Below, piece by piece: positions 1 through 4,057 of a DNA stretch of 4,057 nucleotides; positions within the stretch are counted from its first letter, which is position 1, and every line of letters starts with the position of its first letter. Location: the IMG/VR virus record IMGVR_UViG_2693429733_000020, positions 1-4,057 of that record; one strand, written 5' to 3'. The position numbers and the translations under genes are program-made. A model generated the notes under the pieces. The model saw only the letters and a program-made list of their open reading frames with translations. It did not search any database and was not told where the DNA came from. The DNA comes from a virus (taxonomy: Duplodnaviria; Heunggongvirae; Uroviricota; Caudoviricetes).

Positions 1-262
1 AAATAAATAACGCGTCGCCGGAAGCCACGTCATAAACCGTTTTACCCCGATGATCTTCAACGAGATGCCACGATGACTCATCACTGTTGAAAACAGCCAC
101 GAAACCAGCCGGAATATCTGGCGGTGCAATATCGGTACTGTTTGCAGGCAGACCTGTATGAGGCGGAATATATGCGTCACCTTCACCAATAAATTCATTA
201 GTTCCGGCCAGCAGGTTATAAATTTTTATGGTCCGTGCTTGTTCACTCATTCTGAATGCCAT
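1..262 (-). CDS. tfa: tail fibre assembly protein (Tfa), N-terminal 87 codons; gene continues beyond the window start
   Basis: Reverse-complement translation from ATG at 262..260 gives [87 protein letters not shown]..., which matches the lambda Tfa N-terminus as I recall it almost residue for residue. GAGG Shine-Dalgarno 8 nt upstream. Start overlaps the stf stop (TAATG). Open to the window edge. Confidence 0.9.
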
Positions 263-3200
263 TATGCGAGCCTCACAATATAGTTAAATGCGATGTTTTT
301 GACGGTGTTTTCCGCGTTACCAGCAGCGTTAACGGTGATGGTGTGTCCATGTGAACCAATCGCAACAGAGTGCGTATGAGCACCAATACCGACAGTATGC
401 GCGTGTGCACCCGCAGATGCTGCTGTGCCGGACAGTGAGTGTGTATGGTTTCCTTCTGAAGATGATTTACCTACCCATTGGGAGGTGCCACTGGTTAATG
501 AGCCACTGATACCAACCTGATTAGTCCCGCTAACTTGAGTACTCCCTGCCGGAAACATTCCAGTAGGTTGACTCCCGCTATTCGTTCTGGGCCCAGTCTG
601 ACTATGTTGGTGGGCCCCAGCTGAACTTGTAGAGCCGCTCAGACTGTGCGTATGCGCCCCGGTGTTATTCGTGGATTTAGTGCCGTAATCAAACGACGAT
701 GTGGTTTTCGTCCCCAAATCCGTACTGGATGCGCTGGCGCTGTGGGTGTGCGATTTAATGCCATCCTGTTCCTGAGACAATACGGCACGACCACTGGCGG
801 GCTTGCCCTTAATCGTCCAGCCACGCATATCAGGGATCACGCCTGACGGATAAGCGGCTGCAAGTTTCGGGTAAGCAGATTTGTCAAAAGTCTGCCCCTG
901 CATCAGGGCATAACCAGACGGAACGGTATCTGATGGCCACGGGATTGGTGCACCGACTGGATAAAACTCTGCAGGAGGATGAGCCGAGGTGTAAAGCTGC
1001 GCCCACGGCGACCAGTTTGCGTCGGTCGTATCCCGTCGTGAACGAATAAATGCCGGAGCATGAGCACCGCTTGTACCACTCCAGCCGATGAGTAACTCAC
1101 CTTCGCCAACGGCTGTCATCCCTTTCAGGTGAATGATATTTCCATACGCTGTTGGATATCCGTTGTTATACACCTCGTATAACTCAAGACCTGCTGCCCC
1201 CTGCGTATTGTCTGTCAGCGCGGCTACCCGACCTTTTGAAGCCAGATTAACTGATGATACTGCTGTTCCACCTGACGGTAGCGCCCCGATCTCTGATGCC
1301 GTTGGCTTATTTCTGGAGTTATAGTCCCTTCGCCAGCCAGGTGAATAATCTGTTCCGTGATTAATATAGGTAAACTGGGCGTTGGTTGTTCCGCCACCGC
1401 TGGATGTGGTCGGAGTGGTAATGCGGATCGTCATCGCTGACTTTATCCCCATTACTTCAATGACAGCTCCGGCGAGATGAATATTACCGCAGCCAGTATC
1501 AGTAATGATTTTATTATTGCCATAAGACCAGGAACCCTTGCACATCCAGTATGGATGGTTAAATGCTCCCTGAGAATCCAGCCACTCGATAAACTGTGCA
1601 GTCGTCCAGTTTCCTGTTGTTGTGCTTACTGACCCACCGAAGGCACGGCAGGCACCAATATTTTTCGTAAAGGTGTCTTTGCCAGGGATATCCGCACCGT
1701 TCTGATCTTTCTGCAGACGTTTCTCAGCATTGTCATTGGCTGCTTTTACTGCCTTTGGCGTTGCCGCCAGCGTTTCAGACGTGCTGTTGGTCGCGCTGCT
1801 TAGCTGGATTATCCCTTTCTGTGCTGTCGTTGCATCCTGTGCGGTGTATTTCCCGTTAGCCAGGTCATACGCGGCCTTAACGGCTTTTGGTGTTGCCGCC
1901 AGTGACTCGGAAGTGCTGTTAGTCGCACTACTGAGCTGTACTATCCCCTTTTTCGTCGTGCTCGCATCCTCAAGCGCCACGGCGGATGCAATATCCTCTG
2001 CCCGTTTTGCCGCTGTCTCAGCGCGCGTTGCTGCAGATTCCGCCGTACTTTTGCTCTGAGCTGCTGCCGTCGCACTACCAGCAGCCTCTGTCGCCTTCGT
2101 GGATGCCGTCGTGGCGCTGCCCNNNNNNNNNNNNNNNNNNNNNNNNNNNNNNNNTCGCTGCTGACGCCTGTCTGGTCGCCTCATCTTTTGAAGCAGACGC
2201 CGATGATGCCGATGACGCCGCCGAACTGGCGGACGATGCGGCAGCCGTTTTTGAGGATTCTGCGCTGGTTTCCGACGCTTTCGCGTTCGTTTCGGATGTC
2301 TTCGCTGCGGAAGCAGACCTCGCTGCTGCGCTGGCCTGTTCAGTGGCTTCGCCAGCCTTCGTTGTGGCTGTTGAAGCGGATGATGCGGCGCTTTCTGCCG
2401 ATTTTCCGGCGGCGGTGGCACTGACTGCTGCCTCCTCTGCCTTAATGGACGCCTCACGGGCCGATGATGCAGCTGCTGTCTCAGAGTCTGCCGCAGCTGA
2501 GGCGCTCTGTTCCGCTGCCGTTTCAGAAGACTTAGCATTCGTCTCGGACGTTTTTGCCGCCTTCACGGAATTTCCTGCCGCCGTTGCCGAGGAGGCTGCA
2601 CTGCTGGCGCTTGTGGAGGCGTTCGTTTCTGATGATTTTGCCGCCTCTTTGGAGGCCGCCGCATCTCTGGCTGAAGTGGCGGCTTCTGACGCTTTCGTCG
2701 TCGCAGTGGATGCAGAAGTGGCTGCTGATTTTTGTGACGCTGCAGCATTCGTTTCTGACGTTTTCGCCGCACCGGCACTGGTGGCCGCCGCGCTTTTTGA
2801 GGACTCTGCAGCGGCAGCACTTTTTTCCGCNTGTTGAAGCGGATGATGCGGCGCTTTCTGCCGATTTTCCGGCGGCGGTGGCACTGGCTGAGGCCTGCCC
2901 GGCACTTGTTGACGCGGCGCTGGCAGACGACGCAGCCGCTGTTTTTGAGCCTGCCGCAGCTGAGGCACTCTGTCCCGCTGCCGTTTCAGAAGACCTGGCG
3001 TTCGTCTCGGACGTTTTGGCCGCCTTCGCAGAATTTGCAGCCGCCGTCGCCGAGGAAGCTGCGCTACTGGCGCTTGATGATGCGTTCGTTTCTGATGATT
3101 TTGCCGCCTCTTTTGAAGCCGACGCATCCCGGGCTGAGGTGGCAGCTTCTGACGCTTTCGTGGTCGCGGTGGATGCAGAAGTGGCTGCTGATTGTTGTGA

Positions 3201-3987
3201 CGCTGCCGCATTCGTTTCTAACGTTTTCGCCGCACCGGCACTGGTAGCCGCCGCGCTTTTTGAGGACTCTGCAGCGGCAGCACTTTTTGAGGCTTCAGTG
3301 GCCTTTGTTGATGCCGTTCCTGCGCTGGAAGACGCTGACTGAGCCGACGAAGCGGCCTGTCCGGCTGACGTGCTGGCTGCACGTGCTGAATCTGCAGCAT
3401 CAGTCGCATGGGTTGCCGCCTCACGGGCTGATGTGCTGGCATCGCTGGCTGATTTCTTCGCGGCTGCCGTGTTCTGTGCCACCGCGGACGCGTTANNNNG
3501 CGGCCTGTCCGGCTGACGTGCTGGCTGCACGCGCTGAGCCTGCAGCATCAGTCGCATGGGTTGCCGCCTCACGGGCAGATGTGCCGGCATCACTGGCTGA
3601 CTTCTTCGCGGCTGCCGTGTTCTGTGCCACCGCGGACGCGTTACGCGCCACCTCTTCCACCATCAGCTCAAAACGGCGCAGTGCCTCCGGACGGGCATCA
3701 TCCTCCGTCATGGCACCGAGAAAATCATTCAGCGTACCGGGTCGGGAATCTTCATACACGGTGATGGTCCCGGCATGTGACGGCGGGAATCCTTCCACCA
3801 ACAGAATAACGCTGTACTGACCGTACTCAACGTCCATGCTGTAACGCCCGGCTTCATCCGGATTTTCTGAGGCCAGCGTGTTCACCACCACCGTGGTGCT
3901 GTTACGTTTTGCTTTCAGCTGGATTGTGCAGTTCTGTACCGGTTTTCCTGTGCCGTCTTTCAGTACACCTGAAATCTTTACTGCCAT
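262..3987 (-). CDS. stf: side tail fibre protein (Stf), lambda-like and mosaic; reading frame as given is broken at three N-runs
   Basis: ATG at 3987..3985 (the track's GTG at 3993 is 2 codons upstream) opens [36 protein letters not shown]..., the recognisable lambda Stf N-terminus. Four collinear in-frame segments on the minus strand: 3500..3987, 2832..3495, 2155..2830 and 262..2122, separated only by N-runs. The protein ends ...[31 protein letters not shown], then TAA at 262..264, which is lambda-Stf-like. Start and stop are in the same frame overall. Segments 2 and 3 read as continuous Ala/Ser/Thr-rich Stf repeat sequence. Confidence 0.9.
271..274 (-). promoter_or_regulatory. putative ribosome-binding site for tfa, inside the 3' end of stf
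   Basis: Minus strand GTGAGGCTCGCATA-ATG: GAGG with 8-nt spacing to the tfa ATG at 262..260. Confidence 0.4.
336..750 (-). other. His-rich repeat region of the Stf C-terminal tip (HTH/HAH/HQH/HGH motifs)
   Basis: Translation contains [57 protein letters not shown]: repeated G-x-H-x-H units of the kind found in lambda Stf and T4 gp37 distal tips. Confidence 0.55.
1732..1968. repeat. in-frame coding repeat, 2 copies with period 132 bp (44 aa), encoding the KGI(V/I)[11 protein letters not shown](S/T)[11 protein letters not shown] motif
   Basis: Minus-strand translation shows [35 protein letters not shown] and [35 protein letters not shown] at 1864..1968 and 1732..1836; the DNA copies are visibly similar on the plus strand. 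Confidence 0.75.
2123..2154. other. assembly gap or ambiguous bases (32 N)
   Basis: Run of 32 n characters inside the Ala/Ser/Thr-rich part of stf. Confidence 0.99.
2369..3293. repeat. tandem direct repeat, 2 x ~462 bp (2369..2830 and 2832..3293) joined by a single N; offset 463
   Basis: Both copies start tgttgaagcggatgatgcggcgctttctgccgattttccggcggcggtggcactg and end gaggactctgcagcggcagcacttttt. About 45 bp identical, then a ~65-bp divergent block, then roughly 92% identity. Both encode ~154 aa of Ala/Ser/Thr-rich Stf repeat ([24 protein letters not shown]...[11 protein letters not shown]). Confidence 0.8.
2831..2831. other. single ambiguous base (N)
   Basis: One n character, sitting exactly at the junction of two ~462-bp tandem repeat copies. 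Confidence 0.99.
3352..3643. repeat. tandem direct repeat, 2 x 144 bp (3352..3495 and 3500..3643) separated by NNNN; 137/144 identical
   Basis: Direct base-by-base comparison: copies start gcggcctgtccggctgacg and end gacgcgtta, with 7 substitutions. Each encodes [19 protein letters not shown](G/S)[14 protein letters not shown](G/D)[12 protein letters not shown] on the minus strand. Confidence 0.85.
3496..3499. other. assembly gap or ambiguous bases (4 N)
   Basis: Run of n characters, sitting exactly between two 144-bp near-identical direct repeats. Confidence 0.99.
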
Positions 3988-3990
3988 ATT

Positions 3991-3996
3991 CACCCC
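3991..3996 (-). promoter_or_regulatory. putative ribosome-binding site for stf
   Basis: Minus strand TTGTGGGGTGAAT-ATG: G-rich stretch 5 nt upstream of ATG 3987. Weak match to the SD consensus. Confidence 0.3.
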
Positions 3997-3998
3997 AC

Positions 3999-4025
3999 AA
4001 AAAAGCCCGCCTGAACCGGCGGGCT
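3999..4025 (-). terminator. rho-independent terminator between the upstream gene and stf
   Basis: Minus strand reads AGCCCGCC-GGTTCA-GGCGGGCT followed by TTTTT: a perfect 8-bp GC-rich stem (4004..4011 paired with 4018..4025), 6-nt loop and T-tract 3999..4003. The T-tract ends 11 nt before the stf ATG. Confidence 0.65.
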
Positions 4026-4057
4026 GTCATAACACTGTGTTACCTGGCTAATCAGAA

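Follow-up and report, generated by a model that had tools for sequence, protein, structure and literature searches.

A probable scaffolding origin for an apparent tandem duplication in a lambda-type side tail fibre gene

Introduction

The side tail fibre gene of phage lambda and its homologues in prophages (stfR in some E. coli genomes) belong to a J-lom-stf-tfa module. The same gene order is found in the window considered here (the whole stretch of DNA analysed, 4057 nt from IMG/VR virus record IMGVR_UViG_2693429733_000020), which also shares with the lambda Stf group a (probable) lom terminator upstream, a tfa gene that overlaps the stf stop codon, a PF08400 domain, an Ala/Ser/Thr-rich shaft with heptad periodicity, two PF03406 matches and a PF07484 domain. 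Part of this shaft is apparently duplicated in the window. The unit of the repeat is represented once in lambda, at 88% identity over about 360 nt.

A second kind of precedent comes from genome assembly. Several scaffolders put one N or a few between contigs that they expect to abut or overlap and could not merge. With such joins, made across zero or negative gaps, the locus described below shares the presence of N at repeat junctions, flanks that overlap on the references, flanks that are paralogous, and contig ends at branch points.

Gene content of the window

The stf gene occupies positions 262–3987 on the minus strand, with its ATG at 3987 and its stop codon at 264–262, and in the list of open reading frames its frame is broken at all three N runs; reference annotations call the product side tail fiber protein or prophage tail fiber N-terminal domain-containing protein. 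The 5' part of tfa (tail fibre assembly) follows on the same strand at positions 1–262, its ATG overlapping the stf stop codon (TAATG). In the references tfa is annotated directly after stf with a 1-nt overlap, and it is on this annotation that the identity of the 87-aa Tfa fragment rests, a Pfam search with the fragment having given no match. Upstream of stf, again on the minus strand, a terminator-like hairpin with a T run (4004–4025) probably serves as terminator for lom, the gene immediately before stf in the references; the matching references show the order J, Lom, Stf, Tfa.

Pfam domains were sought in the contiguous protein of one of the two alleles described below (allele Q). The prophage tail fibre N-terminal domain, PF08400, takes up residues 1–134 of this protein (E = 1.4e-71). 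These residues are encoded at 3987–3586 of the window, where 3644–3987 fall in a tract identical to Q, and 3586–3643 are of the type of the other allele, P. Two PF03406 matches (E = 6.2e-37) and the PF07484 Collar domain (E = 7e-12) are in the distal part of the protein, which is encoded by positions 1–2122 and is 100% identical to Q.

Four contigs from two alleles

As a draft scaffold, the window covers a lambda-type stf gene on the minus strand and is made up of four contigs that are separated by N runs at 2123–2154 (32 N), 2831 (1 N) and 3496–3499 (4 N). Two alleles, each of them known from elsewhere as an intact stf gene in which the 462-nt segment at issue occurs once, account for its sequence: P, found in E. 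coli FDAARGOS_943 (locus L001; 943 aa), and Q, found in several IMG/VR prophage contigs (e.g. L069 and L091; 1027 aa).

Contig 1 (1–2122) is allele Q, matching L069 (IMG/VR contig 2698536366_000004) at 2122 of 2122 positions and differing from L001 in the C-terminal part of stf. The 32-N gap that follows it (2123–2154) corresponds to a single base in alignments to L001 and L002, which is C in allele P and T in allele Q. Contig 2 (2155–2830), the final 462 nt of which form copy A of the repeat, is allele P (675/676 against L001, and 612/676 against Q). It is joined by the single N at 2831 to contig 3 (2832–3495), and in gene coordinates these two contigs share 462 nt: on L002, contig 2 ends at 4287 (the alignment stopping 5 nt short, at 4282) and contig 3 starts at 3826. 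Contig 3 comprises copy B, a single-copy stretch of 58 nt and the first copy of a second repeat pair; it is allele Q, identical at all 664 positions to L069, L058, L091, L094 and L081, and 99.1% identical to E. coli 64EVA. The NNNN at 3496–3499 then joins it to contig 4 (3500–4057), with an overlap of 144 nt in gene coordinates. Contig 4 is P-type as far as 3643 and Q-identical beyond, its remainder (3644–4057) carrying the 5' end of stf, which encodes the N-terminal domain, and the intergenic sequence upstream of it (414/414 against Q, 411/414 against L001). Along the scaffold, therefore, the alleles come in the order Q, P, Q, P and then Q, at 99.9–100% identity per segment.

When placed on L002, the pieces are colinear but overlapping (617–2825 onto 2105–4282, 2832–3495 onto 3826–4489, and 3500–4057 onto 4346–4903). 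The 1566 nt from 2155 to 3720 map onto 955 nt in complete genomes, the difference of 611 being 463 + 148, and the lengths of all three N runs disagree with the references, which give one base for the 32 N and overlaps for the other two. On a map of the differences between P and Q, the contig ends lie at or within tracts that are identical in the two alleles, that is, at branch points. The break between contigs 1 and 2 is exactly a P/Q SNP, contig 2 ends 2 nt past a P-specific triplet, contig 4 starts immediately past two P/Q differences, and the ends of contig 3 lie 29 and 42 nt beyond the outermost Q-specific sites.

Two pairs of apparent tandem repeats

An earlier note on this DNA had described a tandem pair at 2369–2830 and 2832–3293 joined by one N, and the coordinates are correct: the copies are 462 nt each, offset by 463, with 56 mismatches (87.9% identity) and the N at 2831 between them, and Tandem Repeats Finder reports a period of 463, 2.0 copies, 88% matches and a score of 1469, which is far beyond chance. 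The description also holds in that, once the N is dropped, the period becomes 462 nt, or 154 codons, in frame on the minus (coding) strand, and in that the copies differ by a replaced block together with a background of about 8% divergence (a 64-nt block at 2424–2487 holds 23 of the 56 mismatches; elsewhere 33 of 398 positions, or 8.3%, differ). The two copies are, however, not each other's nearest relatives. Copy A (2369–2830) is the P version of the segment, matching L001 at 462 of 462 positions and Q at 404, and copy B (2832–3293) is the Q version, for which the figures are 462/462 against Q and 404/462 against P; the 87.9% identity between the copies is the allelic divergence of P from Q (404/462).

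Beyond copy B lies the single-copy stretch of 58 nt (3294–3351), in which P and Q agree at 56 of 58 positions and for which the corresponding piece of allele P is absent between contigs 2 and 4. It is followed by the second tandem pair (3352–3495 and 3500–3643; 144 nt, 95.1% identity), with NNNN exactly at the junction. Here the first copy is the Q version (144/144 against Q, 137/144 against P), while the second, at the start of contig 4, is the P version (144/144 against P, 137/144 against Q), so that this pair is a pseudo-duplication of the same pattern as the 462-nt pair. At both pairs the sequence running from copy to copy is interrupted by N, and the frame as written is shifted at the 1 N and at the 4 N; it is kept if these are deleted, as 462 and 144 are both multiples of three. 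The second N-joined pair is about 670 nt from the first junction, and the earlier note left the 462-nt repeat unlinked both to it and to the 32-N run in the same gene.

Copy A ends in TTTTTTCCGC, where copy B has TTTTTGAGGC. An error at a contig end was considered as the source of this difference and rejected, because the same end is found in FDAARGOS_943 and in 50 IMG/VR contigs; it is a natural feature of P-type alleles.

The alleles and the junctions in other genomes

Among 91 related loci, 90 have one copy of the 462-nt segment. The sole locus with two copies, L081, is an IMG/VR contig that is itself a single-N scaffold with the same join signature, and so the idea that variation in repeat number changes fibre length at this locus is left without support. 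Complete E. coli genomes that have the region at all have it in a median of 2 matching places and a maximum of 8. A comparison with complete genomes of related strains, which the earlier note had proposed, gave a twofold result: it revealed paralogues in two prophages of one genome, but no junction. In the genome in question, that of E. coli O26:H11 11368, two prophages have J-lom-stf-tfa modules separated by 1.47 Mb; the allele in one is P-like and 99.6% identical to copy A, and that in the other is Q-like and 96.3% identical to copy B. P-like and Q-like alleles also occur together in the complete genome of E2865. The junctions were sought with 40-nt probes, neither half of which reaches the seed length of 28 nt, so that a match has to span the junction. 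No match to junction 1, either in its written form or corrected to a Q-type end, or to junction 2 was present in 5426 complete E. coli genomes; in the same set, a 40-mer from the native boundary, used as a control, matched 325 genomes. Degenerate patterns for junction 1 likewise found no match in IMG/VR, the JGI metagenomes or the GTDB representative genomes.

In several loci (among them L004, L005, L006, L008 and L037), a P-type end and a Q-type block occur together. This combination, seen in several IMG/VR contigs, was considered as a possible sign of the duplication and discarded, because one copy contains both markers, about 385 nt from each other; the contigs carrying both allele markers are mosaic single-copy alleles.

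How might two alleles have come to look like a duplication?

We consider the 462-bp tandem duplication to be a scaffolding artefact, in which contigs of two stf alleles were placed in series, and give this reading a probability of roughly 94%. The sample would have held two diverged lambdoid stf alleles, P (like that of FDAARGOS_943) and Q (like those of the IMG/VR prophage contigs), which most likely belong to separate prophages of a single genome. We suppose that the assembler split stf into contigs at the points where the alleles converge or diverge, and that the scaffolder then chained both alleles (Q at 1–2122, P at 2155–2830, Q at 2832–3495 and P/Q at 3500–4057), presumably writing short N runs where its gap estimate was close to zero or negative. 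Because the coverage of contigs 2 and 3 overlaps by 462 nt and that of contigs 3 and 4 by 144 nt, the overlaps read as diverged tandem repeats with N at the junction. The earlier note had seen in the divergence of the copies an argument against a trivial artefact, but the reverse applies: it is because paralogous alleles have diverged that an assembler would be unable to merge the overlapping contig ends. The note's other suggestion, that paralogous fibre genes of different prophages were joined, is supported, provided that the join is placed in assembly or scaffolding and not in recombination within the organism. Two observations do not sit easily with an artefact. Both overlaps are multiples of three, as a real in-frame duplication predicts and as an artefact has no need to be; this carries limited weight, because it is allelic SNPs, mostly in codon phase, that set the contig ends. 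In addition, the Q version of 2155–2368 is absent from the window, and hence the scaffold is not a plain layout with both alleles complete.

A real, in-frame duplication of 154 codons in stf, arising for example by unequal recombination between prophage alleles and giving a longer Ala/Ser/Thr-rich shaft, with the N as a mere ambiguity or a spurious base, would be attractive in that 154 codons, once the N is removed, preserve the heptad register (154 = 22 × 7) as well as the frame, and in that recombination does occur among the mosaic fibre genes of lambdoid phages, as the alleles with a P-type end and a Q-type block illustrate. We nevertheless think it very improbable. The N falls exactly on the junction, NNNN recurs in the same position at the pair about 670 nt away, and a run of 32 N stands for one base; the two copies match two different alleles at 100% identity, both of which have the segment once, and the searches for the junctions gave no match, although the control junction is common among complete E. 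coli genomes. Two events would be needed, both ending at tracts of allele identity and both coinciding with a sequence gap. The same facts dispose us against the old, genuine duplication and expanded shaft of the earlier note, and it would be a considerable surprise if recombination of two resident prophage alleles had produced in-frame duplications of 154 codons (22 heptads) and 48 codons alongside N runs that were there by coincidence. If it had, the two duplications together would add about 200 residues to the coiled shaft. Even less credible, and in our judgement to be rejected, is the notion that real sequence was deliberately masked at the N runs, with the flanking repeats genuine. The description of the genome collection does mention a few stretches masked as runs of N, but masking would keep the length of the sequence, whereas the 32 N correspond to one base in every reference, and the 1 N and 4 N to negative distances (overlaps of 462 and 144 nt).

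A variant of the scaffolding artefact, with P and Q derived from two genomes (through mixed culture, contamination or metagenome co-assembly), is a good deal more plausible than either of these, though still unlikely. It is favoured by the lack of any sign of clonality within the window, and by a search for the source record with N-spanning and allele-specific patterns, which gave no match to it in IMG/VR, the GTDB representative genomes or the JGI metagenomes; as an N in a pattern does match an N in a sequence, these collections probably lack the record. Against it, the region is multi-copy in complete E. coli genomes, and the co-occurrence of P-like and Q-like alleles in O26:H11 11368 and in E2865 means that one genome suffices; furthermore, comparable single-N joins are present in IMG contigs derived from isolates (L081, L069 and L024).

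Implications for draft prophage sequences

If the duplication is a scaffolding artefact, as we believe, diverged "tandem duplications" bounded by N in the tail fibre genes of draft prophages would represent paralogous contigs set in series, and are a matter for caution and not for discovery: such repeats are unfit as evidence of fibre-length variation or host-range evolution, or as grounds for annotating a frameshifted pseudogene. The biology beneath the artefact, most likely two mosaic lambdoid stf alleles in one genome, is already well known. Both alleles (1027 aa for Q and 943 aa for P) are longer than lambda Stf (774 aa, from a CDS of 2325 nt), and they owe this to a different mosaic C-terminal part, not to the 462-nt segment.

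The stf gene and the reported repeat

The lambda-type side tail fibre gene stf, as read from the ORF, runs on the minus strand from an ATG at 3987 to a stop at 264-262. There the tail fibre assembly gene tfa begins, overlapping the stop (TAATG); by sequence and reference annotation it continues on the same strand from 262 downward. Just upstream of stf, also on the minus strand, lies a terminator-like hairpin (4004-4025; eight pairs, seven of them G-C, followed by TTTTT), presumably the lom terminator. The order J, Lom, side tail fibre, tail fibre assembly is the same in the annotation of the best-matching records. Beyond tfa, phage PhiR68_2 (L002) and E. coli O26:H11 str. 11368 carry a PinQ/PinR-type serine recombinase.

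The tandem pair that the earlier note located in this gene (copy A, 2369-2830; copy B, 2832-3293; 462 nt each) is present in the sequence, with 56 mismatches (87.9% identity) and a TRF score of 1469. Its divergence follows the described pattern of a ~65-bp block and about 8% elsewhere, 23 of the 56 mismatches being packed into 2424-2487 and the remaining divergence being 8.3%. A second tandem pair (3352-3495 and 3500-3643; 144 nt, seven mismatches, 95.1% identity) is the same artefact. In both "duplications" an N run falls precisely on the copy-copy junction, a single N at 2831 in the one and NNNN at 3496-3499 in the other. Of the two interpretations offered by the note, an expanded Ala/Ser/Thr-rich shaft and a chimeric join of paralogous fibre genes, the former falls and the latter stands: the 462-nt tandem duplication is not a real feature but paralogous fibre alleles joined into a chimera, its copies being different single-copy alleles whose junction was not found in the collections searched.

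Two alleles in one scaffold

The two alleles are P, as in E. coli FDAARGOS_943 (L001), and Q, as in IMG/VR prophage contig 2698536366_000004 (L069). Contig 1 (1-2122) is Q throughout (2122/2122), the C-terminal part of P being different. Contig 2 (2155-2830) matches P at 675 of 676 positions and Q at 612, and copy A within it is 462/462 P and 404/462 Q. Contig 3 (2832-3495), which includes copy B, is 664/664 Q (and likewise 664/664 to L058, L091, L094 and L081) against 597/664 P; for copy B itself the values are 462/462 and 404/462. In the second pair, 3352-3495 is 144/144 Q, and 3500-3643, at the start of contig 4, is 144/144 P and 137/144 Q; the remainder, 3644-4057, is 414/414 Q and 411/414 P. 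From these identities the scaffold reads Q, P, Q, and then P followed by Q, and the divergence between copies A and B is the allelic divergence between P and Q, and nothing more.

Intact stf genes with a single copy of the segment encode 943 aa in P (FDAARGOS_943) and 1027 aa in Q (L069, L091), and lambda, like both, has the segment once. At 969-1700 the Q fibre, in its central and C-terminal part, lacks a counterpart in L001 (16 of 732 positions aligned), and similarity is 86% at the extreme C-terminus and in tfa; the difference at 969-1700 is the usual mosaic swap of receptor-binding modules in lambdoid fibres. Five IMG/VR loci (L004, L005, L006, L008 and L037) have both the Q-type divergent block (window 2887-2920) and the P-type segment end TTTTTTCCGC. 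These are natural alleles in which the segment is single-copy, and they show real recombination of P and Q types inside it.

Contig joins and branch points

Pairwise BLAST placed window 617-2825 at 2105-4282 of PhiR68_2, 2832-3495 at 3826-4489 and 3500-4057 at 4346-4903, so the stretches that the N runs separate are colinear with a gene carrying one copy and overlap by 462 and 144 nt. Complete E. coli genomes fully cover window 2155-3720 (1566 nt), yet with only 955 nt of record, in three overlapping pieces; the shortfall of 611 is the sum of both repeat periods (463 + 148). The 32-N run at 2123-2154, between contigs 1 and 2, stands for one base in both aligned references (L001 and L002), exactly one P/Q SNP (C vs T), and scaffold gap sizes are therefore untrustworthy: the N runs are contig joins, with lengths unrelated to real distances.

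The other contig ends also lie at allele branch points. Contig 2 stops 2 nt past a P-specific triplet, bordering a 58-nt tract common to P and Q, and contig 4 starts on the opposite side of this tract, immediately past two P/Q differences. In allele P only these 58 nt (L001 3677-3734; 56/58 identical to window 3294-3351) separate contigs 2 and 4. Contig 3, of Q type, spans the common tract and ends 29 and 42 nt past its outermost Q-specific sites, within tracts identical in P and Q. A scaffolder guided by read links via the common tract would naturally place contigs 2, 3 and 4 in that order and estimate the gaps at roughly zero or less, a case in which several scaffolders insert one or a few N.

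Duplication or artefact?

That stf has undergone real duplication is very improbable. The main point in its favour is that both overlaps (462 and 144 nt) are multiples of three, such that the frame is kept when the N runs are deleted; the earlier note was right that the larger, without its N, amounts to 154 codons, which is also a multiple of the shaft heptad period. The event would be needed twice within one gene, each time with end points at allele-identity tracts and exactly under a sequence gap; the two copies would have to remain 100% identical to two different circulating alleles, and no trace could be left in any other assembly.

The junctions were sought with 40-nt probes (20 nt from each side) by Megablast with a 28-nt exact seed, by which a probe matches solely junction-spanning DNA. 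None of the 5,426 complete E. coli genomes matched junction 1 (at N 2831), as written or with a Q-type end, or junction 2 (at 3496-3499); a control 40-mer spanning the native boundary (3274-3313) had hits in 325 genomes. Junction 1 patterns were likewise absent from 2.9 million IMG/VR contigs and 185,579 representative genomes, and a degenerate form (one extra base present or absent, P- or Q-type ends) from IMG/VR and 241 million metagenome records. Among fetched loci containing the unit, 90 of 91 have it once. The exception, L081 (IMGVR_UViG_2695420382_000009), has two copies 1.5 kb apart and is another chimeric scaffold of this kind, containing pieces of two stf genes: single-N joins at 3411 and 6838 split a Q-allele stf, a 3.4-kb insert with the 5' part of another stf allele lies between them, and the flanks overlap by ~177 nt in gene coordinates. 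Single-N joins occur also in L024, L069, L075, L084 and L088.

Complete E. coli genomes that hold the region have a median of two matching places, and up to eight. Strain 11368 has two J-lom-stf-tfa modules 1.47 Mb apart, each with a single copy: that at 2.12 Mb is 99.6% identical to copy A (87.9% to copy B), and that at 0.65 Mb is 96.3% identical to copy B (90.2% to copy A). Copies at different prophage loci, which the earlier note had named as evidence against a duplication, are thus found in related genomes such as this one rather than in the source strain, and the duplication is not upheld. That P and Q came from a mixed sample instead of one genome is unlikely, and would leave the verdict of an artefact unchanged.

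Genuine repeats

The genuine repeats here (heptads and two PF03406) are already known from Stf-like fibres. The Ala/Ser/Thr-rich shaft (about 2040-3590, minus-strand codons; residues about 135-455 of the contiguous protein) shows strong heptad periodicity, with residue self-matches of 0.43-0.48 whenever the lag is a multiple of 7 vs 0.23 expected from composition. In the DNA, repeat families are mostly spaced by multiples of 21 nt, with a period-21 TRF match at 2872-2925. An internal repeat free of N (1732-1838 and 1864-1970; 107 nt, 74%), in frame with a period of 132 nt (44 codons), encodes two Phage tail fibre repeats (PF03406), the protein motif starting GI[VI]. Pfam assigns the contiguous protein these two, the Prophage tail fibre N-terminal domain (PF08400, 1.4e-71) and one Collar domain (PF07484). 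Opposite the shaft-coding region are three long antisense ORFs on the plus strand (1986-2837, 2554-3342 and 3260-3820; 186-283 aa, rich in Ala, Asp, Phe and Val), which are most likely not genes but a by-product of the GCN-, TCN- and ACN-rich codons of the coding strand.
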